From an uncultured Eubacteriales bacterium (GTDB lineage: Bacteria; Bacillota; Clostridia; Oscillospirales; CAG-272): DNA of 64,000 nt. This document shows positions 6,787 through 60,388 of this stretch, piece by piece. The translations under genes were made by a program, and so were the position numbers. Under the pieces are notes generated by a model. The model saw only the letters and a list, made by a program, of their open reading frames with translations. It did no database searches and had not been told where the DNA came from. Positions within the stretch are counted from its first letter, which is position 1; each line of letters begins with the position of its first letter. The DNA lies in assembly GCA_900547725.1 (NCBI GenBank), contig URHR01000002.1:3294-67293 (forward strand), in the 5' to 3' direction.

Positions 6787-6864
6787 GTAAAGTTCTTGAA
6801 AGTCTTGAAAACTTCTTGAAAGAAGTTTTCAAGTGGGGTGCGGGGCAAAGCCCCGCGACCTTTA
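6787..6864. repeat. REP-like double-hairpin intergenic element, copy A (diverged)
   Basis: AAGTTCTTGAAAG...AAAACTTCTTGAAAGAAGTTTT...GCGGGGCAAAGCCCCGCGACCtTTA. It is collinear with the copies at 16598 and 52237. Its end abuts the hpf stop codon. Confidence 0.7.
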
Positions 6865-10631: not shown

Positions 10632-11480
10632 ATGAAAAAGCGGATGTTGGCGTTCTTGACCGTGTGTGCCGTCCTGTGCGGCAGTGCTTGCGCGAGAAAA
10701 GTACCGTCCGGGATCGAACGCGGAACGCCCAAAACCGAATCCCCGGAAGAATCGAAAACGCAAACGTCCGGGGAGGAGCTGTTGCCGGTTTATGCGCCCG
10801 AGCGGATTGCCGCGGCTTCCAAATGGGACGGAAATCAGCAAATGGTGACGAGCAAATCCGAAATATACGAGTTTCTGGACGGGAACGGGAAAAAGGAAAC
10901 GCCTTATCTGCTGAAAAGCGCCGAGGATGTTGCAAGGCTCGCGGCGAACGTGCGGCATTACGGAACTTACCTGAATACCGAGATTACGCGCTACCGCGGC
11001 GTGTATTTCCGTCTGGAGTGCGACATCGATATGCAGGGACATCCTTGGTGGGGAATTGGCGGCGGCTCGGATCTGTCGCGTGGCAAAACCTCCTTCATGG
11101 GGATCTTTGACGGGAACAATCATGCCATCTACAACCTTGCGTTGCGGGAAGAACCGCTGTCCGGATTCTTTTCCTACATCAGCGACGGTGCTGTTATCAA
11201 AAATCTGATTATCGCGTCGGGAACGGTGGAGTTGTCGTCGAATTTCCAACATGCGGGAATTCTGGTCGGAAGGGTTGCGGGCGGGGCGGTGATCGAAAAC
11301 TGTTCCGTCTCCGTGGAGATGACGGGCAGTTCCGAAAAGCTGTGGACGGTCGGGATCATCGGACACGAAACCGACGGTTCCGTATCCGTGGAAACCTGCG
11401 ATTTCGGCGGCGTGACGTTCGGCGGCGAGCCGTATGCGATTCCCGGAATCGGATACAAGAGGACAACCGACGCGAACTGA
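10632..11480 (+). CDS. Secreted (possibly lipo-)protein with GLUG-like repeats
   Basis: Signal peptide MKKRMLAFLTVCAVLCGSAC. FMGIFDGNNHAIYNL and AGILVGRVAGGAVIENCSV resemble the GLUG motif and the FxGxFDGNGHxIxNL segment. Confidence 0.7.
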   Translation: MKKRMLAFLTVCAVLCGSACARKVPSGIERGTPKTESPEESKTQTSGEELLPVYAPERIAAASKWDGNQQMVTSKSEIYEFLDGNGKKETPYLLKSAEDVARLAANVRHYGTYLNTEITRYRGVYFRLECDIDMQGHPWWGIGGGSDLSRGKTSFMGIFDGNNHAIYNLALREEPLSGFFSYISDGAVIKNLIIASGTVELSSNFQHAGILVGRVAGGAVIENCSVSVEMTGSSEKLWTVGIIGHETDGSVSVETCDFGGVTFGGEPYAIPGIGYKRTTDAN

Positions 11481-11543
11481 TCCGACGCGGATGCGCCCGC
11501 CGGCGAAAATCGGGAGAATGCGCGAAAAAATTCGGATTAAGTC

Positions 11544-11572
11544 TTGACAAACCGGGAAAGATGTGGTACAAT
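11544..11572 (+). promoter_or_regulatory. Sigma-A promoter of the ileS leader
   Basis: TTGACA at 11544-11549, 17-nt spacer, extended -10 TGgTACAAT ending at 11572. Confidence 0.8.
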
Positions 11573-11584
11573 AGCCATGAACGG

Positions 11585-11892
11585 CTGTGACGAAGAAGCC
11601 GCGGGACGGAATGCCACAGAGAGTGCGCGGGCGGTGCGAGCGCATGACAGGATGTCCCCACAGGGTATCGCTTCCGAGCCGACAGGGTGAAACCGTGCAG
11701 TACAGGCTTTGCGGGAGTAATTTTGTCCGTGTTGTCGCGTTAAGACAGGAGGTTAAGGCAATACCTCGCAATTGTACCATCTGCATTACGCGGGATTACC
11801 TTAAAAGACCTGTGAGTGCGCCCCATCCGGGCGAACATGAGTGGTACCGCGGAAAATTCCGTCTCATGGCATGATGCCGTGAGACGGTTTTT
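11585..11892 (+). promoter_or_regulatory. T-box riboswitch (tRNA-Ile-responsive leader) with terminator
   Basis: Stem I elements AGAGAG...GGTGCGAG. Candidate AUC specifier at 11667-11669, directly 5' of the basal-helix strand GCUUC. T-box sequence GAGTGGTACCGCGG at 11839-11852. Terminator CCGTCTCATGGCATGATGCCGTGAGACGG + T5 at 11859-11892. Confidence 0.9.
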
Positions 11893-15010: not shown

Positions 15011-15110
15011 AAATCACCTCCTACGAACGGATAATTTTTCAGTCGGAATTTTAGGCTGTTGGATTGCTATACGCGGGCAAAGCCCCGAGGCTTTACGAAA
15101 GGAGAAAAAC

Positions 15111-16599: not shown

Positions 16600-16676
16600 G
16601 GAAGTTCTTGCGGGGTCTTGGGGGGCTTCTTTCAAGAAGCCCCCCAAGTGGGTTCGGGCAACGCCCGAGACCTTAC
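16598..16676. repeat. REP-like double-hairpin intergenic element, copy B
   Basis: GGGAAGTTCTTGCGG..GGGGGGCTTCTTTCAAGAAGCCCCCC..GTTCGGGCAACGCCCGAGACCTTA. It fills the whole gap between convergent rluD and the DeoR gene. TTA is present at both boundaries. Confidence 0.75.
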
Positions 16677-49975: not shown

Positions 49976-50107
49976 ATGTGCAAAACGTAAATAAATATAG
50001 AAAATATGCAGATTCGCACCCCGTTTTGGCAAAAAATATGGTATAATATACAAGAAGGTGATGGGATTCCGAATTTCTCATGACAGGAAAAGAAAGGGGT
50101 TGTGACG

Positions 50108-50623
50108 ATGTTTGCAGTCGGTGAGTATGTCTATTACGCTTCGGAGGGGGTCTGCCACGTTGCGGATATCTGCTGCGCGCCCCTGTGCGGGATGCCTGCG
50201 GACAGGATTTACTATGTGCTCCACCCGTTCCGCAACAACGGCGGGGTGCTGTATGTGCCAACCGACAGCGAGAACGTTTTTCTGCGCCGCCTGCTGACGG
50301 CAGAGGAGGCGAACCGTCTGCTGAACGAGATTCCCGCAATGGAGGCGTTCGAAGAACCGAATGCAAAGGCGTTGCGCCTGCGGTATACCGAAGCCATGCA
50401 TACCCACACGCCCTCCGAATGGGTGCGGGTCATCAAAACCGTGCGCGAACGGGTCAGCCGCATACGCGGCAGTTCGCGGGCACAGCGTATCTCGGAAACC
50501 GAACGCGGCTTTGCCGAGGACGCAAAGCGGTATCTCTACGCCGAGCTGTCGTTGGCTCTCGATGTTCCCGTCGGCGAGATGGAACAGTATATCCGCAACC
50601 GTATTGAAATCTGCTCTGCCTGA
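50108..50623 (+). CDS. CarD/CdnL/TRCF-domain family protein
   Basis: N-terminal FAVGEYVYYASEGVCHVADI...YYVLHP...LYVPTD matches the CarD_CdnL_TRCF RNAP-interacting domain pattern. Confidence 0.75.
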   Translation: MFAVGEYVYYASEGVCHVADICCAPLCGMPADRIYYVLHPFRNNGGVLYVPTDSENVFLRRLLTAEEANRLLNEIPAMEAFEEPNAKALRLRYTEAMHTHTPSEWVRVIKTVRERVSRIRGSSRAQRISETERGFAEDAKRYLYAELSLALDVPVGEMEQYIRNRIEICSA

Positions 50624-50635
50624 CAAATGTCAAAA

Positions 50636-50656
50636 GCCCACCGCGTGGGCTTTTTT
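50636..50656 (+). terminator. Intrinsic terminator after the CarD-like gene
   Basis: GCCCAC-CGC-GTGGGC followed by T6. Confidence 0.8.
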
Positions 50657-50677: not shown

Positions 50678-50706
50678 TTGACAAAACGGTTGTAATATGC
50701 TATAAT
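50678..50706 (+). promoter_or_regulatory. Consensus sigma-A promoter of the HprK-like/PqqD/S24 operon
   Basis: TTGACA at 50678-50683, 17-nt spacer, extended -10 TGcTATAAT ending at 50706. Confidence 0.75.
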
Positions 50707-50742
50707 AGAACAGAAATCAACAGAACGGAGCAAACCACGTCT

Positions 50743-51447
50743 ATGTTTATTATCCGCCTTGCCGAGATCCGTATCCGGATCGAGAACCGATATGCGTTTA
50801 TTGAGCGGCAGTGCGCCGGTTACATCTGCCCGGGGGACGAGTATGCTTTTTCCGTCTCGGCGAGCGAGGAGGAATTGCAGGAGGAGCAGAAGAACGGCGA
50901 TTTTTCCGCCGCCTATTGCGAAAGCATCTGTCTCTACCGTCATATCTGCGAGACTTTGCCGAACTACAATGTGTTTCTGATGCACGCCTCAATCATTGAG
51001 GCGGACGGAAACGCCTACGCCTTTACCGCTAAGAGCGGGGTCGGGAAATCCACCCATACGGCGCTGTGGCTGAAAAATATTCCGAATGCACGGGTTCTCA
51101 ACGGAGACAAGCCGTTGCTTCGCGTGGAGACGGACGGCTCGGTGACGGCGTTCGGGACTCCGTGGAACGGGAAGGAAAACTGGGGCGAGAATATCTCCGC
51201 TCCGCTCCGCGCCATCTGCTTTATCGAGCGCGGAGAGGTCAATTCCATCCGGCGGGCAACGCAGGAGGACGCGATCGGGCGGTTGGTTCACCAACTTTAC
51301 CTGCGCGGAACGCGGGCGTCGGTCAACAAACAGCTGACGCTGATGGACGCATTGGTGCGGGCAGTGCCGTTCTGGGTTCTTTCCTGCACGATTTCCGACG
51401 AGGCGGCAAAGGTCGCCTATGAAGCCATGAAATATAACGGTCAGTGA
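50743..51447 (+). CDS. HPr-kinase-like P-loop protein (HprK C-terminal domain-related)
   Basis: 234 aa from ATG 50743. FTAKSGVGKSTHTALWL...VLNGDKPLL parallels the HprK/P P-loop region GxSGxGKSxxALxL...LxxDD. Confidence 0.6.
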   Translation: MFIIRLAEIRIRIENRYAFIERQCAGYICPGDEYAFSVSASEEELQEEQKNGDFSAAYCESICLYRHICETLPNYNVFLMHASIIEADGNAYAFTAKSGVGKSTHTALWLKNIPNARVLNGDKPLLRVETDGSVTAFGTPWNGKENWGENISAPLRAICFIERGEVNSIRRATQEDAIGRLVHQLYLRGTRASVNKQLTLMDALVRAVPFWVLSCTISDEAAKVAYEAMKYNGQ

Positions 51448-51464
51448 CCGAAAAGGAGAAGCAT

Positions 51465-51731
51465 ATGCGAATCAAAAAGGATTTTACCATTCAGAAGGTC
51501 GGCGATTCCTACATTGCCGTGGCAGTCGGGGAGACGAGCAAGACCTTTCACGGGATGGTGCGGCTGAACGAAACCGGCGCGTTTCTGTGGAAGAAGCTGA
51601 GCGAGGCGGATATTACGCTTGACGAATTGGTGGACGCCATGCTGAAAGAATACGAGGTAGACCGCGAGACTGCGGCACAGGACGCGGCACGTCTGGTGGA
51701 GCAGTTCCGCGAGAACGGAATTCTCGAATGA
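51465..51731 (+). CDS. PqqD family protein (RiPP recognition element-type peptide chaperone)
   Basis: 88 aa with an AGGAG RBS 6 nt upstream. LNETGAFLWKKLSEADITLDELVDAMLKEYEVDRETAAQDAARLVEQFRENGIL is a textbook PqqD/RRE pattern. Confidence 0.8.
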   Translation: MRIKKDFTIQKVGDSYIAVAVGETSKTFHGMVRLNETGAFLWKKLSEADITLDELVDAMLKEYEVDRETAAQDAARLVEQFRENGILE

Positions 51732-52198
51732 CGGAAACCGCAGAGTCGAACGGCAATATCGAGCGGCAGCTTGCCGAGCAGGGCTTTTATGTCAGCACAA
51801 CGGTCGGGTGCAGTATGCGCCCCATGCTCCGCAACCGCCGGGATCGCGTGATCGTCCTGCCCATCGGGGACGAACGGCTGAAAAAATACGACCTGCCGCT
51901 CTACCGCCGCCCCGACGGGAAATATATCCTGCACCGGATCATCGGCGTGCGGGACGGGGAATATGTGATAAGAGGGGACAATACCTATGCAAAGGAATAC
52001 GTCCCCGACGCGTGGGTGCTGGGCTATGTCACGGAGTTCTACCGCGGGAAACGGCACGTCCTGTCATCGGCACGGTCTTACCGTTTCTATGCGCGCGTGT
52101 GGAATCTGATCTATCCCGTGCGGCGCGTCTTTCATGCGGGACGATCTTTCGCCGCCCGCGTGTGGCACAAACTCAAACCCAAAAAGCACTCCGTATAA
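51728..52198 (+). CDS. S24/S26-family serine peptidase-like protein (LexA/signal-peptidase fold)
   Basis: GCSMRPML nucleophile motif, HRIIGV...VIRGDN block, ATGA overlap with the PqqD gene. No N-terminal TM anchor. Confidence 0.7.
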   Translation: MTETAESNGNIERQLAEQGFYVSTTVGCSMRPMLRNRRDRVIVLPIGDERLKKYDLPLYRRPDGKYILHRIIGVRDGEYVIRGDNTYAKEYVPDAWVLGYVTEFYRGKRHVLSSARSYRFYARVWNLIYPVRRVFHAGRSFAARVWHKLKPKKHSV

Positions 52199-52236: not shown

Positions 52237-52326
52237 TAGGAAAGTTCTTGCGGTCAAGGGGCTTCTTTCAAGAAGCCCCTTGTGGGGTTCGGGGCAAAGC
52301 CCCGAGGTCTTAGCCCCGAGGTCTTA
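52237..52326. repeat. REP-like double-hairpin intergenic element, copy C, with terminal 14-bp tandem duplication
   Basis: GGAAAGTTCTTGCGG..GGGGCTTCTTTCAAGAAGCCCC..GGTTCGGGGCAAAGCCCCGAGGTCTTA. GCCCCGAGGTCTTA is present twice in tandem (52299-52312, 52313-52326). Confidence 0.75.
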
Positions 52327-52339
52327 AAAGGAGGAAAAC

Positions 52340-53059
52340 ATGGCGGAATTGTATCCGACGGCGCATATCGCCGCAACCCCCGCAGATTTTGCGCGTACGG
52401 TCCTGATGCCGGGCGACCCCCTGCGGGCGCAAATGATCGCAAAGGAGTGGTTGGAGAACGCAAAACTCATCAATAATATCAGAGGCGTGCAGGGCTATAC
52501 CGGAACTTACCACGGCAAGCGCATCTCGGTTATGGCAAGCGGAATGGGAATGCCGTCTATGGGGATCTATTCCTATGAACTGTTCCGCGTGTTCGGAGTG
52601 GAGAATATCATCCGCATCGGAACTGCAGGCGCAATCAAACCGAACGTCCGTGTCCGCGACCTTGTGTTCGGTATGGGAGCGTCGACCGATTCCAACTACG
52701 CGGCTAACTTCGGACTTCCCGGCAGCTTCGCGCCGATCTGCAGCTACAGTCTGCTCGCCGAAAGCGTGAAACAGGCGGAACTGGCGGGCGCAACCTACCA
52801 TGTCGGCGGTCTGCTCTCTACTGATGTGTTCTACGGCGACGATCCTGCAGTCAATGAAAAATGGGCAAAAATGGGCGTGCTCGCAGTGGAAATGGAAGCG
52901 GCGGCACTCTATATGAACGCCGCAAGACTCGGGAAAAACGCGTTGGCAATCTGTACCGTTTCCAATCATATCCTCACGGGAGAAGAGACAACCGCAGAAG
53001 AGCGGCAGAACTCTTTTGGGGAAATGATCCGGCTGGCACTTGAGGTCGCGCCGGAATAA
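52340..53059 (+). CDS. deoD: Purine nucleoside phosphorylase, DeoD type
   Basis: TAHIAATPADFARTVLMPGDPLRA, GMGMPSMGIYSYEL and EMEAAALY motifs. Confidence 0.95.
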   Translation: MAELYPTAHIAATPADFARTVLMPGDPLRAQMIAKEWLENAKLINNIRGVQGYTGTYHGKRISVMASGMGMPSMGIYSYELFRVFGVENIIRIGTAGAIKPNVRVRDLVFGMGASTDSNYAANFGLPGSFAPICSYSLLAESVKQAELAGATYHVGGLLSTDVFYGDDPAVNEKWAKMGVLAVEMEAAALYMNAARLGKNALAICTVSNHILTGEETTAEERQNSFGEMIRLALEVAPE

Positions 53060-53340: not shown

Positions 53341-53395
53341 TTTGGATGGATGATACAGGTGTATCATCTTCCTTTGCAACCGGGCTTTGCTTTTT
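53328..53395 (+). terminator. Riboswitch expression-platform terminator
   Basis: AGCCCGGTTGCAA (53328-53340) pairs perfectly with TTGCAACCGGGCT (53374-53386). An inner GATGATAC/GTATCATC helix lies between them. TTGCTTTTT follows. The 5' arm is shared with the aptamer. Confidence 0.8.
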
Positions 53396-53429
53396 ATCTG
53401 CATTTAAAAGCGGTAAAGGAGGGTTCGGA

Positions 53430-54950
53430 ATGGCGAACAACAACCAAAACAAAAGGGTCGGCTCATTTGCCGCGATCAACGGGGGCGTGATTGAAGGGTG
53501 CTCGGCGAATGTACAGCTGAGCGGATGCCCCAACGGTGCGGGCTTTGTGTTCGGAAACAGCGGCGTGGTAAAAAACTCCGTTGCAATGCGCGTGGGGCGC
53601 GGGAAGGGCGTTACGGGCTTTTACAAGCGGAACACGGGCACGATCAATTCCTGCGGATATCTTGCAGACCCCAAGAAGCGCCGGATTGACCGCAGCGGCA
53701 ACGTGACGGTTGCAACCGGAAATCCCGAGTGCTTCATGCCGAAGGGAACGCCTTCGGATCAACTCTATCATAAACTCGGACTTCAGAACCTGTGGAAGAA
53801 CGAGCGCACCAAGCGCGGCTTTGTTCTCGAGCCTGACCGCTTCCGCAACCGCGCGGTGCTGTTCGGTGCGCAGGAACGCGTGATTCCGATCAAAACGGCG
53901 GCGGATCTGACGCGGATCATTACCGCTGTCAATTCGGGCGACCGCGCGGCGGCTTCGGCAAACTATATGCTGGAAGCAAGCATCAATATGCGCGGCGCAA
54001 AACTCGAGCCGATCGGACTTTCCGAAGCGCTCCCGTTCAGCGGTTGCTTTGACGGAAACGGCAAGACGATCTACAATTTCAAGATCGACTGCACGGGAAT
54101 GGAGTACGGCGGCTTCTTCGGCTACACCAAGAACGCAAAGATTGCGAACCTCACGCTTGACTATGTCCTGAAGGGCAAGCGCGGAATCGTGACGGGCGGA
54201 ATGATCGGAAACGCGGTCGGCGGCGGCGTTGCAAACTGCCATGTCCGCGTGGGCATGACGGTTGGAAGCTGCGCAGGTGGCTTTGTGGGGAAGAATACGG
54301 GATATATTCAGAACTGCTATGTCTGCGGCAGTGTGGCAGGACCTGTTCCGGTGTTGCCGATTGTGACCTCAGTTGCGGCGGTTCTGCTGGCGGCAACCGT
54401 TACGACTTCGGTTATCGTGGTGAAGAAACTGACCTCGGACACGGTGTTCAGCCCCGAGGTGATCGACCCGAACCAGAAGCCCGCGCCGCCCGAAAAGGAT
54501 CAGCCCGATCCGTTGCCCACGGGAACAAGCCGCCTGAGTCTGCGGCTGAATCAGGACGTGGACGTCAGCTACGCAACGGGCGTTGGCGTAATCAATTATG
54601 TCAATCCCGCATCCAGTACGCATGATATGGTGATTCGGCTCTGCATCTCCGACACGGAGCTGAAAAAAGCGGGGATCGACCTGATCGCGGCGGGAGTCCG
54701 CAAGCAGTCGGAAACGGAAGCCGATGGCTACGATCCCGACAAGGCATTGACAACCTTTTACCAGTCGGGCAGAGTCCAGATCGGCTATCAGTTGGAGAAC
54801 TGCAAGATCACCGCGCTTCCGGGCGGCGACAAATTGCCTGTAGGAGAATACAAAGCCGTGATGGTGATCGAGCCGTATGACCCGAAAACCAACGAAAAAT
54901 CAATCGTGAACGCGCAGGCAGAGATCACCCTTCGCATCCTCAATCGGTAA
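53430..54950 (+). CDS. Bitopic membrane protein: ~305-aa GLUG-repeat N-terminal region, one TM helix, ~185-aa C-terminal domain; no signal peptide
   Basis: AAGGAGGG RBS before ATG 53430. GLUG-like repeats (FSGCFDGNGKTIYNF, GGFFGYTKNAKIANL, GGMIGNAVGGGVANCHV, GGFVGKNTGYIQNCYV). TM helix VPVLPIVTSVAAVLLAATVTTSVIVV (~54343-54423). Confidence 0.8.
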   Translation: MANNNQNKRVGSFAAINGGVIEGCSANVQLSGCPNGAGFVFGNSGVVKNSVAMRVGRGKGVTGFYKRNTGTINSCGYLADPKKRRIDRSGNVTVATGNPECFMPKGTPSDQLYHKLGLQNLWKNERTKRGFVLEPDRFRNRAVLFGAQERVIPIKTAADLTRIITAVNSGDRAAASANYMLEASINMRGAKLEPIGLSEALPFSGCFDGNGKTIYNFKIDCTGMEYGGFFGYTKNAKIANLTLDYVLKGKRGIVTGGMIGNAVGGGVANCHVRVGMTVGSCAGGFVGKNTGYIQNCYVCGSVAGPVPVLPIVTSVAAVLLAATVTTSVIVVKKLTSDTVFSPEVIDPNQKPAPPEKDQPDPLPTGTSRLSLRLNQDVDVSYATGVGVINYVNPASSTHDMVIRLCISDTELKKAGIDLIAAGVRKQSETEADGYDPDKALTTFYQSGRVQIGYQLENCKITALPGGDKLPVGEYKAVMVIEPYDPKTNEKSIVNAQAEITLRILNR

Positions 54951-54995
54951 TCCCTGCGCAGTCGAAAGTCGAAAAATTGAGAGGAGGTGGGGAGA

Positions 54996-57900
54996 ATGAA
55001 AACGAAATTCGGAAAGTGGATTGCAGGCGCGGTCGCGTTCTGCATAGTACTGGCAACCGTGTTGGCAGTTCCGTTCGGTTTCCTTCTTCCCTCGTCTGCG
55101 GAGTCGGCTTTCGCAACCTTTTCTTCCGGCGCTGTGCTGATCGATTCTTCGTACAACGGGAAAAATGTCATCATCAAAAACGGCGTTTTCTCGGTTACGG
55201 TTGTCGGAGCGACGAATGTCACACTTCTGTTTGAAGGCGCGACAATGAACCGCAGATATGCCGATGATACGGAAAGCGGAAAACAGATTGAGGGGCTTTG
55301 GGCTGTTTCGCAGAAACTCGGATGGAACAACAAAGCGCAGGTCTGCCCGCTTCTGATTACCGGCAATTCGGAAGTCAAGGTGGCATTCCGCGGAGCAAAC
55401 TATTTCTATGCGGGGGTCAATGGTTGCACCGTAAATTCGAGCAATTACTATACAAAGTCGCAAAGCGGCGGCGGATTTGCTGGCATTCAGGTTGACAGCG
55501 GTTCGACCCTGACGATTGAACAGAGCAACGGCTCGGTAGCCGCCTATGGCGGTCACTGGGTGAATGTAAACAACTCCTCCAACAATCCGAGTGATTCCAC
55601 CAATTTTCCAAATGGCAGGGAATGGGAAGGTTACGGATCGCCCGCCGGAACTACAGCCAATAGTCTTGCAGGCGGCGCCGGAATCGGCGGCGGCGTGTCC
55701 GGTACTACCACAACCTGCGATAATACGGCGTATACACAGGGCACACCGGGAACCATCATGATCAACGGCGGCGAAATCCATGCGTTCGGAGGACATCAGG
55801 CGGCAGGAATCGGCGGCGGTGTAAACGGCGCGGCAACTTCAACTTCCATCACTGTTACCGGCGGAACAATCGAAGCCCACGGCGGACGTTGGGCGGCAGG
55901 GATAGGCGATGGAGACTCGCTTCCCTATCACCCGAGCAATCAGTTTTCAAAATCCTATTCCGTCAATATCTCGGGCGGAACGGTGACCGCCGTTGGCGGG
56001 GTTGGATGCGCGGGCGTTGGGTGTACCGATGATGTGAAAAATTCCGGAATGACAATCGAGCTGTCCGGCGGTAACATCACGGCGCATTCCGGCTATCCGG
56101 ACGGATTCGATCCGAGCACCGGCACTTACAGAAACAACAAAGCACTGTCGGACAGTGATCCGACTCCGGCGGGTATCGGCGCAGGAAACAAATCCAAAAT
56201 GGCTGAGCATTCGATCATCATCCGGGAGGGAACGCAAATTACAGCCGCTTCCTTCGGCCATTATTCCATTACGGAAAACGGATTGAACCAGAGCCAAGTC
56301 CCCAATATTTCTCTTGAGCAGTGCAGAATGTACAACGGTCGTTTTCCGAACCTGACCTCTTCTAAAGACCGTACCTTCCGGCTTCTGGAAGCGCAGAGAG
56401 AAGACATTCTTGTAAACGGAAAGGTCGGAAACTACATCAAATTCATTACACAGCCGAGCGACGGTTCTGAAGGAACGGTTTATTACTACGATTCCGATGA
56501 ATTTATGCTTCTGAATGCAGACAAAACCGTTTATCCGCTGTCGGATGACTTGGAGACGCGCGAAAAGGAACTGTTGAAGCTCTTCGAGGATCATCATATG
56601 ACGCTTTATGCCGATAAAACCTCAAAAGAGACGAGGCGCGTTGTGGCGCGGAAGCATTTCAAATCCATTGCAATGACGCTTCCCGATCCCGCATTGCACG
56701 GCGGCATTTACGCATTGGAAATCCCGACCTCCCAGTTGGTGTCAGTCCCCGACGGGGTAACCTTTCCGGAAAGCGAAAAGGTCTACATCACGATCAGCGC
56801 GCTGACCCCCGGAAACATCTGGGGCGAAATCGATTATCCGTTCAGCTACAACATGAAGCTTGACGCGGTTTCCTCTCCCTTTGAAAATCTCGACGTTTAT
56901 CCGAGCGCAGATTGGCAGGGGCGGGACGACGGCTACATCGGAAACAAATATTCCGAAAGCCTGTTTGCCTACACGGTCTACATCGAAAGCGACGCAACCG
57001 AAACCTACGTTTACGCAATGTTTGTGATGGAGGACGGCGTTACCTACACGGTGAAGCTTGACAATGTGCTTCAGACAATCGAGACCGAAACGAAAACCGT
57101 GGACGGCGTGACAGTCAAAATCGGCCATATCATGATGAAAGTCTCCATGGCGGGGGTGACCCAAAAAGTTCTGCAACTGGAAAAGCAGGACACCAACAAC
57201 ACAGTAGCCGCGCACTCCATCATTTACAAGATCACCATCAACCGCAAGGCAACCTACACCCTCAGCCTGAAAGACCTCAGCAAAACCTACGACGGCAACC
57301 CGGTTGTTCCCTCGGTTGAGGCGGTGCTGAACGGGAGCGGCGCTACGGCGGAAAAGGTGACTGTCCCGGAAGAGGATCTGAAGAGCGCAACCTTTACCTA
57401 CGGCGTTGGTACAACCACGGGTCTGACCGAAGCGCCGAAGGACGCAAGCAACGGCGAGAATGGCTATTCCGTAACCGCTACAATCAACACCGAGACCTAT
57501 ACGGCAACGGGAACGGCTTACTTCTCCATTTATAAAAAGCAACTGTCGGTTACGCGCATCGGAAACTATCTGCTGTACGTCAAATCGAGCGACTACGAGA
57601 AGTGGAAAGATCAGGGCACTTACCCGATTTCCGACCCGGGTGCGATTTTCCTTTCGGGGCTTGTGAAGAATGAAAGCGTGACGTTGACCCACGGAAACGT
57701 TTACTATAACGACCTTTCCATTGGCTACGGCGCAACGAAAATCACGCTTGAGAATGTGCAGATTTCGGGCGACGCCGCAAAGAACTACACCATTGACCCA
57801 ACGCAGACCGTGTTCGGACAGATCAACTATTCGCTTGACGGCGCAATCTTCCGCTCGGAGGACGGCGGGTCATGGGACAAGTTCTATCCGATTGACAGTG

Positions 57901-58484
57901 AAAACCCCGTAAACGGCACGAGCGCGGACTACCATTCGCCCAAAAACGCGGACGGAAGCTACACTTCGCACGCGGAGTATGTCTGGGCGAGAACGCAGGG
58001 CGGCGGCACGGCGCAGGCAGTCTATGCAATGGAAATCGAGTTCGGCGCAATGTATTTCAACTATACCAAGGAAGTCTGGAATACCGACTCCATGAAGTAC
58101 GAGCAAGCCGAAAACGGGGAATCCTTCTGGATCGGCTTTGACGGCAAGAACAACTGCGTAACGGTTGTCAACCGCTCCAATGCGGCGATCTTCTGCAACG
58201 TCAAACCCGAAATTTCCTTCATCTACGCCTCGCATGACGGCGGGCAGAGCGGCATTGTGGCAAAGGTTTACACCAAGAACGAGGCAAACACGAATTACCT
58301 TGTAACCGAAACCGAGGATGTGACCATTCCACAAGCGACCCCGCCCGAAACCGTGACGGGGACGGGAACTGCCACGCGGCAGTCGTTCTACCTGATCCTC
58401 TCGGGAAACCCGCAGTCAGGCAATACCGACAGATATATCGCCGTTGGCGATATGATCGTAACCGTTAAGAAATCTTCCGATTGA
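54996..58484 (+). CDS. 1162-aa secreted adhesin-like protein: signal peptide, beta-helix-type GG..AGIGGG repeats, YDG/MBG-like modules, C-terminal domain shared with the four downstream small proteins
   Basis: GAGGAGG RBS 8 nt before ATG 54996. Signal peptide MKTKFGKWIAGAVAFCIVLATVLAV...SSA. Four units of type IxIxGGxIxAxGG..AAGIGGG. KTYDGNP...AAKNYTI modules. C-terminus EIEFGAMYFNY..WN..Y...VVNRSN. Confidence 0.85.
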   Translation: MKTKFGKWIAGAVAFCIVLATVLAVPFGFLLPSSAESAFATFSSGAVLIDSSYNGKNVIIKNGVFSVTVVGATNVTLLFEGATMNRRYADDTESGKQIEGLWAVSQKLGWNNKAQVCPLLITGNSEVKVAFRGANYFYAGVNGCTVNSSNYYTKSQSGGGFAGIQVDSGSTLTIEQSNGSVAAYGGHWVNVNNSSNNPSDSTNFPNGREWEGYGSPAGTTANSLAGGAGIGGGVSGTTTTCDNTAYTQGTPGTIMINGGEIHAFGGHQAAGIGGGVNGAATSTSITVTGGTIEAHGGRWAAGIGDGDSLPYHPSNQFSKSYSVNISGGTVTAVGGVGCAGVGCTDDVKNSGMTIELSGGNITAHSGYPDGFDPSTGTYRNNKALSDSDPTPAGIGAGNKSKMAEHSIIIREGTQITAASFGHYSITENGLNQSQVPNISLEQCRMYNGRFPNLTSSKDRTFRLLEAQREDILVNGKVGNYIKFITQPSDGSEGTVYYYDSDEFMLLNADKTVYPLSDDLETREKELLKLFEDHHMTLYADKTSKETRRVVARKHFKSIAMTLPDPALHGGIYALEIPTSQLVSVPDGVTFPESEKVYITISALTPGNIWGEIDYPFSYNMKLDAVSSPFENLDVYPSADWQGRDDGYIGNKYSESLFAYTVYIESDATETYVYAMFVMEDGVTYTVKLDNVLQTIETETKTVDGVTVKIGHIMMKVSMAGVTQKVLQLEKQDTNNTVAAHSIIYKITINRKATYTLSLKDLSKTYDGNPVVPSVEAVLNGSGATAEKVTVPEEDLKSATFTYGVGTTTGLTEAPKDASNGENGYSVTATINTETYTATGTAYFSIYKKQLSVTRIGNYLLYVKSSDYEKWKDQGTYPISDPGAIFLSGLVKNESVTLTHGNVYYNDLSIGYGATKITLENVQISGDAAKNYTIDPTQTVFGQINYSLDGAIFRSEDGGSWDKFYPIDSENPVNGTSADYHSPKNADGSYTSHAEYVWARTQGGGTAQAVYAMEIEFGAMYFNYTKEVWNTDSMKYEQAENGESFWIGFDGKNNCVTVVNRSNAAIFCNVKPEISFIYASHDGGQSGIVAKVYTKNEANTNYLVTETEDVTIPQATPPETVTGTGTATRQSFYLILSGNPQSGNTDRYIAVGDMIVTVKKSSD

Positions 58485-58538
58485 AAATTGAAATCGGTTG
58501 ATACATAAAAATTTTTTGCTTTTGAAAGGAGCAGAATT

Positions 58539-59174
58539 ATGAAAAAATTTCTTTCCCTTATGCTCGCAGGCTTGATGTCCGCATCCCTGTTCGTCGTTGG
58601 TGCAGCGGCGGATACTTTGAAAGATGGTGTTGTCGGTCCGAATCATGGCGTTTTGGAAAACGAATTTAACACCCCTGTCCAAGACGGTGGTAACAAAATC
58701 AATGTCAAGGTTGAGAAGGTGACACACAAGTATGCGGTTGATTTAAAGTTTTCGTTTGGCGATTTGACAATCGGCCATCTTGAATGGAATGTCGATACCA
58801 TGCGTTATGACACTGTAAAAGGCGAGGAATTGAAGAACACAACCAGAGAAATTACAGTTTCCAACCGTTCCGACCTGCCTATTCAAGCGTATGCAACCGT
58901 TTCTCCTGCTGCGGACAAAGCACCCGATTTAACTATTGGAATGACCGGAGAAGGCGATTCGGAGACGAATAAGCTGACTGTGTCAGCGGCGAACAAGGGT
59001 CAAGGAGAGGCGAATGGAGAGCCCACCACGGGAACGTTGACGGTCAAGTTGGAAAGCAATGCATGGGGTTCGGTTGCGCAACATTACATCGATATGCAGT
59101 TTGCAACACCCGATAGTGAAAAGACATACACAGTTGCAACCGTTACGGTTATCATCAGCAAAAGCGCACAATAA
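58539..59174 (+). CDS. Small secreted protein, paralogue 1 of the locus-specific domain family (211 aa)
   Basis: Signal peptide MKKFLSLMLAGLMSASLFVVGAAA. Core YAVDLKFSFGDLTIGHLEWNVDTMRY...ITVSNRSDLPIQAY. C-terminal beta-strand-like TVATVTVIISK. Confidence 0.85.
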   Translation: MKKFLSLMLAGLMSASLFVVGAAADTLKDGVVGPNHGVLENEFNTPVQDGGNKINVKVEKVTHKYAVDLKFSFGDLTIGHLEWNVDTMRYDTVKGEELKNTTREITVSNRSDLPIQAYATVSPAADKAPDLTIGMTGEGDSETNKLTVSAANKGQGEANGEPTTGTLTVKLESNAWGSVAQHYIDMQFATPDSEKTYTVATVTVIISKSAQ

Positions 59175-59260
59175 AAACGCCTTCAAACGGTTACTCCGTC
59201 CCCCTCGGGTGACGTGGTAATAAATGGGTTCGACATTTTCGGAGAAAGGAGGATAAAAGG

Positions 59261-59779
59261 ATGAAAAAGATTCTTGTTTGTATGATGGTTCTGGCGCTCT
59301 GCCTCTGCGCAACGATTTCGTCGTTCGCAGCGGGACAATCCGAGGGTGAATATACCGGTCAGAAGGAAAATCAGGATGTCAATGTTACAATCTCGGGTGC
59401 TATTGTTCATACCTATCTGGTTGACATTGAGTTTGCCAATCCGACTTTCACTTATTCTACCGGTTCGGTCTGGAATCCGGAGAAGTATCAGTACGAGCCG
59501 AGCACCGAGGCTACGTGGAATGGTACAGGCGAAGTGAAAATCGTCAACCATTCCGACCTGCCTGTTACTTACAAGGTAGAAGCCACGGATGTTGTGGACA
59601 CCTACGGCACGCTGACCATTCCCGTGACGAACGGGGACGGCACGATTGCAAAGTGCGCAGTCGGCGATGCTCGCGGCAGCCACAACGCAACCGCGACCTA
59701 CAAGGTTGAGGGAACTCCCACGGTTTCGGAAATCACCGCGCAGAAGCTCGGTTCGATTCTCGTAACCATCACAAAGTAA
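59261..59779 (+). CDS. Small secreted protein, paralogue 2 (172 aa)
   Basis: GGAGG RBS. Signal peptide MKKILVCMMVLALCLCATISSFA. Core YLVDIEFANPTFTYSTGSVWNPEKYQY...VKIVNHSDLPVTYK. C-terminus GSILVTITK. Confidence 0.85.
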   Translation: MKKILVCMMVLALCLCATISSFAAGQSEGEYTGQKENQDVNVTISGAIVHTYLVDIEFANPTFTYSTGSVWNPEKYQYEPSTEATWNGTGEVKIVNHSDLPVTYKVEATDVVDTYGTLTIPVTNGDGTIAKCAVGDARGSHNATATYKVEGTPTVSEITAQKLGSILVTITK

Positions 59780-59845
59780 GAACCCCGCCCGGCGGGAACT
59801 GTAGCCCTGCCGTGTAGGATTCGCAAGGAAAGGAGAAGCAGATTC

Positions 59846-60388
59846 GTGAAACTGAGAAGAATTTTGGTACAATTGTTCATAGCGACCGCGGTTTTGCTTC
59901 TCCCGGTACTTGTTTTCGCCGAGCCGATTCAATCGGTTGGCGGGGGAGCGGATGTCGTGATTTCCGTGATCGACAACCGCAAAACCGTGCGCTATGAAGC
60001 CGATGTGGTATTCCGCAATACCACATACACCTACAATCTGGTCAGCGTTGCCGAAAATGTGGAAACCGGCGAACGCTACATCAACAGCGGCTTTTGGCGG
60101 GAGGCAAGCGGTGTGGAGGCGGATTCGTTTACCGTTTCGGTTAAAAACCGTTCCAACCGTGCCTTAACCGTTGAAACAGAGCCGAATACCGCCGACTTTG
60201 ACCGATGCGGCGCAGGGGTGACCCTGTATGGGGGAGGAGAAATCACAATCCCCGAAGTCGGGCAGGCAGACGGCAAAACCGTTGCTTACGAGAATGTGTT
60301 TGAAGCCGTGTTCGGTCGGTTTCCGAGTCTGGATTCCTACAAGGGAGTCAAACGGATTACCGCAACCGTGCGCCTGAAGCATTCGTGA
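59846..60388 (+). CDS. Small secreted protein, paralogue 3 (180 aa, divergent)
   Basis: AGGAG RBS, GTG start. Signal peptide MKLRRILVQLFIATAVLLLPVLVFA. Core YEADVVFRNTTYTY...VSVKNRSNRALTVE. C-terminus ITATVRLKHS. Confidence 0.8.
   Translation: MKLRRILVQLFIATAVLLLPVLVFAEPIQSVGGGADVVISVIDNRKTVRYEADVVFRNTTYTYNLVSVAENVETGERYINSGFWREASGVEADSFTVSVKNRSNRALTVETEPNTADFDRCGAGVTLYGGGEITIPEVGQADGKTVAYENVFEAVFGRFPSLDSYKGVKRITATVRLKHS

Follow-up and report, generated by a model that had tools for sequence, protein, structure and literature searches.

What may be the task of a kinase, a recognition element and a peptidase that are encoded side by side, with no peptide in sight on which they could act? The question is raised by a three-gene unit of an uncultured Eubacteriales bacterium (CAG-272 lineage), contained in a stretch of 64,000 nt of contig URHR01000002.1 (assembly GCA_900547725.1); hereafter "the window" denotes this 64-kb stretch at its full length, and the labels of related loci and proteins begin with L and P, respectively. 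The genes encode an HprK-like kinase, a PqqD-type RiPP recognition element (RRE; RiPP, ribosomally synthesised and post-translationally modified peptide) and a serine peptidase, and the unit probably represents the minimal Clostridial kinase–RRE–peptidase (K-B-S) core of a RiPP pathway of the linear polyphosphorylated peptide (LPP) type, the precursor being supplied in trans.

LPPs have been described from Bacilli, as a family restricted to Bacillota and located in capsular polysaccharide loci, and their biological role is unknown (Popov et al., Nat Commun 2026;17:6633, PMC13381572). The published operon, lppA-K-B-S-D-N of Paenibacillus alginolyticus DSM5050, comprises genes for the HprK-like kinase LppK, the discrete RRE LppB, the peptidase LppS, similar to signal peptidase I (SpI), the MsbA-like exporter LppD and the nucleoside triphosphate (NTP) transferase LppN, of the NTP_transf_5 family (PMC13381572). 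The precursor bears the motif YxxPxVLxHQxIxFETxxS; LppK puts several phosphates on Ser3 of the core and LppS, inactivated by the substitutions S29A, H68A and D93A, cuts after Thr-1 of the FET motif in a reaction that requires LppB and that proceeds poorly with the unphosphorylated precursor (PMC13381572).

The three genes and their products

The unit consists of three tightly coupled genes, all on the + strand. A preliminary description of this DNA had reported a consensus promoter followed by three coupled genes with a 17-nt spacer and an ATGA overlap, and every one of these elements was found again in its place:

50678–50706, + strand: sigma-70-type promoter (TTGACA, 17 nt, TATAAT, extended -10 TG)
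50743–51447, + strand: LppK-like P-loop kinase of predicted HprK/PEPCK (phosphoenolpyruvate carboxykinase) fold, 234 aa (fold, Walker A, Asp of NGDKP, weak NCBIfam matches)
51465–51731, + strand: LppB-like discrete RRE of the PqqD family, 88 aa (PF05402, E 9.3e-19)
51728–52198, + strand: LppS-like, predicted soluble homologue of archaeal/ER-type signal peptidase I, 156 aa (TIGR02228, SEC11A fold, Ser29/His69/Asp84)

The promoter agrees with the consensus at 12 of 12 positions, the shuffled region yielding a mean of 1.5 weaker sites. The kinase gene starts with the ATG at 50743, its homologues beginning at the same MF(I/V)I, and ends with the stop codon at 51445–51447; the 17-nt spacer up to the ATG of the RRE gene (51465) contains a GGAG, and the RRE stop and the peptidase start share the ATGA at 51728–51731.

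The first protein is predicted to be a P-loop protein of the HprK/PEPCK fold. Indeed, its AlphaFold2 model (predicted local distance difference test, pLDDT, 90.9) was matched by Foldseek to HprK/P and to ATP-dependent phosphoenolpyruvate carboxykinase with E ~2e-6, probability 1.0 and template-modelling (TM) scores of 0.36–0.52. Even relatives that are only 35–45% identical keep the Walker A motif AKSGVGKST and the Asp of NGDKP unchanged, the invariant residues being S98, G99, G101, K102, T104, D122 and K123. The predicted fold, the Walker A motif and the conserved Asp would together make up the HprK-like kinase that LPP clusters have in the same operon. In the protein collection the family is labelled Pfam PF27840 "ScmC"; the local Pfam copy, Hpr_kinase_C included, returned no match, and the NCBIfam matches, to ScmC (TIGR04249), HprK_rel_A (TIGR04352) and HprK_rel_B (TIGR04355), are weak. 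The earlier statement that the unit lacks a core enzyme was a misreading, the HprK-like kinase being the class-defining modifying enzyme of the LPP family.

To judge from its sequence, the second protein is a discrete PqqD-type RRE adjoining the peptidase gene, an arrangement that LPP clusters share. Its best NCBIfam matches are lasso-type PqqD chaperones, and it shares 39% identity with the RREs of Clostridial SpI pairs in the dataset of the LPP paper (clusters 4 and 9 of the sequence similarity network, SSN) and 33% with an LPP RRE of Paenibacillus. The family labels "HPr-kinase-like" and "PqqD" of the preliminary description are borne out by the HprK/PEPCK fold in Foldseek and by the PF05402 match.

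The third protein appears, from motifs and from its model, to be an SpI-like leader-peptidase homologue with the Ser/His/Asp set of the LPP peptidases. The motifs GCSMRPM (Ser29), LHRI (His69) and RGDN (Asp84) are present, the three residues are invariant in family alignments, and the best NCBIfam match is TIGR02228 (archaeal-type signal peptidase I). A profile of 24 family members matches the bacterial signal peptidase I structure 4nv4 (E 9e-4) as well as human SEC11A (7p2p) and SEC11C (E 4e-3), with the GxSMxP, HR and GDN motifs of SPase I and SEC11A in register. The AlphaFold2 model (pLDDT 80.7) has SEC11A as its top fold match, followed by SpsB, LexA and lambda repressor, and displays a long C-terminal amphipathic helix (residues 116–149); a hydrophobic anchor is lacking, the maximum Kyte-Doolittle hydropathy over 19 residues being 0.35. 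Thus, as regards the "S24/S26-fold serine peptidase" of the preliminary description, the serine peptidase stands and is of the S26B/archaeal-ER type (Ser-His-Asp, like SipW and SEC11), whereas LexA-type S24 does not. The protein is 35% identical (E 2e-22) to SCH01704, a member of SSN cluster 9 of the LPP paper, and 23–31% identical to LppS-type proteins of Bacilli in cluster 1 (E 1e-8 to 6e-6 for three members), these pairwise E-values coming from a small database, so that comparison with the paper's SSN threshold of 1e-23 is approximate; against a profile built from the Clostridial peptidase family, the cluster 1 proteins reach E 1e-14 to 1e-22.

In the domain table of the LPP paper TIGR04249, TIGR04352 and TIGR04355 stand for the HprK kinase class, PqqD for the RRE and TIGR02228 for SpI (PMC13381572), and these are the models that match the window proteins.

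Conservation of the trio

A word-indexed search with the kinase returned 1,447 matches, the best 120 of which are all at least 69% identical and spread over many metagenome-assembled genomes (MAGs), and an exhaustive search found 7,487 relatives (E ≤0.001) among representatives of 50%-identity clusters. The neighbourhood was surveyed in 82 other kinase-centred loci, 78 of them from species-representative genomes. Both partners accompany the kinase in 43, mostly in the order kinase, RRE, peptidase, so that the trio is not a chance arrangement; eight further loci have only the peptidase and five only the RRE beside the kinase. Functional linkage of the three genes is reinforced by fusions of the kinase domain, to an S24-type peptidase or to NTP_transf_5 among P0124, P0261, P0183, P0158, P0194 and P0215, and to PqqD in locus L063 (1935–2906). 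The former group also includes fusions to radical SAM and to a Tyr phosphatase (Y_phosphatase3), a hint of further chemistry in the kinase superfamily.

The flanking genes vary between these loci, the sole recurrent extras being NTP_transf_5 genes (11 loci) and exporters of the ATP-binding cassette (ABC) type. Relatives with 79–83% identity keep the order V-ATPase, CarD-like gene, kinase, RRE, peptidase, and have different genes downstream. Two outcomes that the preliminary description had named as adverse to its view, a first protein without an HprK-like fold and a trio not kept together in other genomes, did not come about: the model search found an HprK-like fold, and the three genes are conserved as a unit in many genomes.

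Two side observations concern the distribution of the family. Kinase/RRE/peptidase systems and precursors were also seen beyond Bacillota, in MAGs of Actinomycetota and Synergistota (L026 and L029, Eggerthellaceae; L063 and L094–L101, Synergistaceae), where errors of MAG binning are possible. Furthermore, L013 (894–3000), L024, L025 and L043 contain a lone kinase gene, with neither RRE nor peptidase, in a conserved block in which a tadA-like deaminase, an ACT-domain protein and a UPF0210-like protein were recognised by eye; in three of these four loci the kinase gene is followed by that of a membrane protein of ~320 aa, with CPBP/CAAX-protease motifs as judged by eye (EEWAFRG ... FGIMH).

Candidate precursor peptides in related loci

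A survey of the neighbourhoods of the 234-aa protein's homologues for recurrent small open reading frames (ORFs) had been proposed at the outset, and it was rewarding for related loci, not for the window. The scan near kinase homologues yielded peptides with a common N-terminal region, ...YExPExEVIxFExEDVITTS..., and the family that they define has KYE-x-[PA]-E-x-E-[VI]-I-x-F-E-[TNS] as its leader, then EDVIT[TSA]S and lastly a variable tail of ~5–30 residues; a Clostridial example is MKEKYEAPEIEIITFETEDVITTSDQGDGGGQIGS. A profile search collected 217 precursor-like proteins of ~30–100 aa, most of them 30–60 aa long, whose source names, where given, are "hypothetical"; scans of the candidates against NCBIfam and Pfam returned no family.

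The association with the maturation genes holds also when the peptides are taken as the starting point. Within 80 metagenome loci (658 kb, several of them near-duplicates) fetched by the peptide motif alone, the kinase was found in 25, the RRE in 28 and the peptidase in 23, most of them 0.05–2 kb away on the same strand, and chance would place ~0.3 kinase genes in 80 such loci, assuming one kinase gene per ~2.5-Mb genome. At least four gene orders occur among them:

Order 1: pep-pep-RRE-NTP_transf_5-kinase-peptidase-ABC
Order 2: kinase-RRE-ABC-pep-pep-peptidase-NTP_transf_5
Order 3: pep-X-kinase-RRE-peptidase-ABC
Order 4: pep-kinase

The fuller clusters thus add NTP_transf_5 and an ABC_membrane/ABC_tran exporter, matching LppN and LppD. 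A hidden Markov model (HMM) of the peptides detected the precursor in 13 of the 82 other kinase-centred loci as well, in three of which it lies directly behind the peptidase gene and has a Cys-containing core.

These last variants, found at 11439–11651 of L021 (a Faecalibacterium MAG), at 11444–11662 and 7988–8218 of L040 (a Blautia MAG) and at 11470–11694 of L048 (a Clostridiales MAG), have the leader YEKAxAEVxxFDNSDVIT[AT]SG, with no Pro, and longer cores.

A second regularity concerns what precedes the precursor genes. In the peptide-centred loci 84 of 96 precursor genes have, on the same strand, an ORF of at least 100 aa that ends no more than 200 nt upstream, the gap being typically 13–40 nt; the median length of these ORFs, many of which are cut by contig ends, is 555 aa, and 50 of them have at least 400 aa. 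Where annotated or visible, their products have cell-surface-type domains or signal-peptide-like N-termini, as in examples of 947–2,080 aa with Laminin_G_3, Metallophos, Beta_helix, Flg_new, LTD/CotH or Big_2. Precursor genes placed 0–40 nt behind the gene of a large protein include:

L087: 10001–10132
L088: 4853–4990 and 10001–10132
L091: 10001–10102
L094: 8001–8168
L111, L136, L147 and others

Several precursor copies occur per genome in Clostridia and Synergistaceae, most of them distant from the maturation genes. Their placement behind the genes of particular secreted proteins suggests that the peptides are tied to these proteins. A more far-reaching proposal, which we advance as a rather doubtful one, is that the LPP-type phosphopeptides of gut Clostridia and some Synergistaceae would serve secreted or surface proteins as dedicated partners instead of being free-standing antibiotics: many secreted-protein genes, some of them giant and adhesin-like, would have their own downstream precursor gene, a single vertically inherited kinase/RRE/peptidase module would mature all the peptides in trans, and each phosphopeptide would aid the secretion, anchoring or assembly of its neighbour protein.

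What the window lacks and the alternatives that follow

The unit was described from the beginning as devoid of a precursor-like ORF, and this negative result was extended to the whole 64 kb by searching its six frames with regular expressions and HMMs. With an HMM derived from 11 NTP_transf_5 genes of the neighbourhoods, no NTP transferase (LppN) was found in the six-frame translation of the window, nor any match in L182–L185, and tblastn with three cluster-associated exporters gave no match to an MsbA-type exporter (LppD) in the window at E ≤1e-3. Precursor, NTP transferase and exporter are likewise absent within 3–10 kb of the trio, contig permitting, in the examined relatives having at least 58% kinase identity. 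LppN, LppD and a precursor with Y-x-x-P...F-E-T-x-x-S in or near the cluster are the LPP features that the window does not display and, since neither the window nor the loci of close relatives contain a precursor, the substrate for this clade has not yet been seen.

These absences weigh against an LPP-type pathway, and so do several other points. The systems that adjoin precursors have kinases only 35–41% identical to that of the window, so that carrying their substrate type over to the trio is an extrapolation. The kinase activity of the 234-aa protein rests on fold and motifs, the TM scores being moderate, and the profile of its family retrieved from the PDB sequences only chance TetR matches and no solved relative. 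The kinase gene stands without either partner in ~26 of the 82 loci (in some because of contig ends), and the family may have other roles besides that in the trio. The peptidase falls outside SSN cluster 1 (edges at E ≤1e-23), the group to which the authors gave the name LPP, and in their supplementary table the Clostridial SpI + RRE pairs of clusters 4 and 9 are marked "RRE others", without precursor and without discussion (PMC13381572). Finally, it is unusual for a RiPP cluster to be so highly conserved and to lie among housekeeping genes.

The main rival draws on the same observations. It holds that the trio was turned to another, non-RiPP task of the housekeeping type, in which the RRE docks an ordinary cellular or secreted protein that is phosphorylated by the kinase and clipped by the peptidase, as regulated proteolysis or maturation, with no free peptide product. 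Apart from the missing precursor, such a substrate would accord with the degree of conservation (at least 69% identity in the best 120 of 1,447 matches), with the synteny with the V-ATPase operon and the CarD-like gene, with the lack of an exporter in the window and with the existence of kinase-family genes that have neither RRE nor peptidase. On the other hand, every recognisable substrate adjoining the homologues is a short leader-plus-core peptide, RRE, kinase and peptidase share the catalytic or binding architecture of the tested LPP enzymes, and precursors located elsewhere in the genome are on record in the published dataset (PMC13381572). We therefore regard re-purposing towards a non-peptide substrate as unlikely, the LPP-type core acting in trans remaining the reading that we favour.

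Far less probable is that the trio is the decaying remnant of a complete LPP or paeninodin-type lasso cluster which lost its precursor, NTP transferase and exporter and, in the case of the lasso cluster, its cyclase. It is true that the window lacks three of the six LPP components, that related genomes possess fuller versions and that many gain and loss events have been inferred for LPP clusters (PMC13381572). However, the ratio of non-synonymous to synonymous substitution rates (dN/dS), determined against three relatives, is 0.07–0.18 for each of the three genes, and it is this purifying selection that largely refutes decay and characterises the bare trio as a selected architecture. Furthermore, the catalytic residues are invariant, the frames are intact, the promoter is perfect and translational coupling is tight, and the same bare trio is kept across the clade in different genomic contexts. 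Homologues also occur outside complete clusters; had they always been embedded in such clusters, this copy would, according to the preliminary description, have been a remnant.

Hardly credible at all is that the 156-aa protein serves, as a common secretory signal peptidase like SipW, the secreted proteins encoded downstream (53346–60388), the other two genes being unrelated: its kinship with archaeal/ER-type signal peptidase I and the signal-peptide-like N-termini of several gene products encoded 1–8 kb downstream are outweighed by the missing membrane anchor, by the overlap of its start with the RRE gene, by its co-occurrence and at times fusion with the kinase, by the separate cluster that bona fide SipW proteins form in the published network (PMC13381572) and by the change of the downstream genes in relatives in which the trio stays.

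Some sequences were considered as precursors or substrates and discarded. In L001 the kinase gene is separated from the RRE gene by 298 nt, a gap that contains only sequence resembling repetitive extragenic palindromes (REP) and no conserved ORF, and the 39-aa ORF behind the peptidase gene of L182 and L183 has neither a Y-x-x-P nor an F-E-T motif and is probably part of the leader region of a pyr operon. As to the secreted proteins of the window (53346–60388), taken as possible substrates or partners, Pfam offered only hints of Beta_helix_3, YDG and GLUG, and no precursor gene trails their genes.

Proposed pathway and its significance

By analogy with the LPP enzymes, the trio may operate in three steps. 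The RRE (51465–51731) would bind the N-terminal Y-x-x-P leader of a short precursor as an added β-strand; the HprK-like kinase would then transfer phosphate from ATP, probably more than once, to a conserved Ser situated early in the core; lastly, the RRE would present the leader/core junction to the soluble Ser29/His69/Asp84 enzyme, by which the leader would be cut off. Cleavage presumably follows FE[TNS], and the phospho-acceptor would be the invariant Ser of EDVITxS. As neither the window nor the loci of its close relatives contain a precursor, we infer that the window copy acts in trans, its precursors being encoded beyond the 64 kb, a possibility supported by published cases in which the RRE or the precursor is encoded elsewhere in the genome (PMC13381572). 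The idea of a minimal module for peptide phosphorylation and cleavage, serving a substrate encoded elsewhere, had been put forward in the preliminary description and, given the LPP precedent, is the one favoured here. Since the window has neither an NTP transferase nor a dedicated exporter, its product would be only phosphorylated and cleaved.

If so, the LPP family, described only in May 2026 and from Bacilli, would also take in a great many uncultured Clostridia of the gut and rumen, with the bare kinase/RRE/peptidase trio as a stable, selected architecture and not debris. A candidate substrate family with a recognisable leader is now at hand, and hundreds of small unannotated peptide genes of gut metagenomes are thereby flagged. 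The position of precursor genes behind those of secreted, often very large proteins provides a testable lead to the function of the phosphopeptides and the partnership proposed above, if true, would give the LPP family a concrete function; we attach more weight to the precursor family and to its link with large secreted proteins than to the window copy itself.

Surroundings of the unit

Two further elements of the + strand delimit the unit:

50636–50656, + strand: intrinsic terminator of the upstream CarD-like gene (GCCCAC-CGC-GTGGGC followed by TTTTTT, read from the sequence)
52258–52307, + strand: GC-rich, hairpin-type intergenic repeat after the peptidase gene (REP-like, no T-run)

The terminator, a textbook hairpin with T6 recognised by eye and not reported by the automated terminator scan, marks the 5′ boundary and separates the unit from the CarD-like gene (50102–50623, PF02559). 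The repeat, which is followed by deoD (52340–53059), is a possible 3′ boundary.

The palindromic GC-rich repeat GGGGCTTCTTTCAAGAAGCCCC and an adjacent GGGGCAAAGCCCCGAGG-like unit occur in several copies between genes of the window: an identical 22-mer is present at 16622–16643 and 52258–52279, and related 17-mers at 6842–6858, 15074–15090 and 52291–52307. The repeat looks like a REP-type element of this lineage, and similar sequence, judged by eye, fills the kinase–RRE gap of L001 (8697–8993).

The block behind deoD (53346–60388) is conserved in L184 (11657–19839) and encodes uncharacterised, probably surface proteins, i.e., a 534-aa GLUG-motif protein, a 1,165-aa beta-helix/YDG protein and three proteins of 172–211 aa that have signal-peptide-like N-termini and no family match.

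Comparison with known systems

With HprK/P the kinase shares the fold of the P-loop catalytic domain, a Walker A motif of the GxSGxGKS type and an acidic residue after the next strand. Unlike HprK/P, it has no significant Hpr_kinase_C match, possesses a different N-terminal domain and is found in a context of peptide maturation and not of carbon catabolite control, so that it is not to be counted as an HprK/P.

The SynChlorMet cassette consists of ScmC, the PqqD-like ScmD and two radical SAM/SPASM enzymes (TIGR04248–04251). The kinase is filed under PF27840 "ScmC", weakly matches TIGR04249 and adjoins a PqqD-type partner; its score with this model is 21 bits, far under the cut-off of 125 bits of the ScmC equivalog, and the unit is devoid of radical SAM/SPASM genes, which places the trio outside the cassette. 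Literature searches under ScmC, SynChlorMet, PF14907 and PF27840 gave nothing usable.

The resemblance of the peptidase to SipW of Bacillus subtilis and to SEC11A/C (MEROPS S26B) lies in the alignable GxSMxP, HR and GDN motifs and in the structural match, the best being SEC11A. It differs from these enzymes in having no transmembrane anchor, in its long C-terminal amphipathic helix and in being genetically coupled to an RRE, on which it may, by analogy, depend.

The paeninodin and pseudomycoidin lasso clusters of Bacillota comprise a PadeK/PsmK kinase, the PsmN NTP transferase, a B1 RRE and a D exporter, and PsmK phosphorylates the C-terminal Ser (PMC6993621). An HprK-like kinase combined with a PqqD-type RRE for a [Y/W]-x-x-P leader is common to these clusters and to the systems described here, as are, in fuller relatives of the trio, the pairing of kinase and NTP transferase and the ABC exporter. 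Genes of a cyclase, of a radical SAM enzyme or of a YcaO protein are absent from the unit, which comprises only three genes, only the unit itself having been screened for them; the macrolactam cyclase (C) and the transglutaminase-type B2 protease are not in the unit, and no such family recurs beside the trio in the 82 other loci. The leader would instead be removed by a serine signal-peptidase homologue, so that the product is presumably linear, and the candidate peptides vary at their C-termini, their conserved Ser lying close to the leader/core junction.

The closest parallel is with the LPP clusters themselves. The trio comprises the same three families in the same order as lppK-B-S, the catalytic residues S29, H69 and D84 of its peptidase occupy nearly the same positions as S29, H68 and D93 of LppS, and related loci have LppN-type and LppD-type genes together with precursors that carry the Y-x-x-P...F-E-T leader. 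The differences are that precursor, LppN and LppD are missing from the 64 kb, that the window proteins are only ~23–33% identical to those of Bacilli, and that the peptidase is nearest to SSN cluster 9, neither analysed nor called LPP by the authors. Clostridial precursors have KYExP and FE[TNS] in common with LppA of Bacilli but three fewer residues between Y-x-x-P and F-E-T, and cleavage after FE[TNS] would put the invariant Ser of EDVITxS at position 7 of the core, as opposed to Ser3 in LPPs; their loci adjoin genes of secreted proteins instead of lying in capsular polysaccharide loci, and the system is also present in MAGs of Synergistaceae and Eggerthellaceae, whereas LPPs were described as confined to Bacillota. 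The window trio belongs to a Clostridial branch that was listed but not studied in the LPP work (PMC13381572), and represents a new minimal variant in a new lineage.

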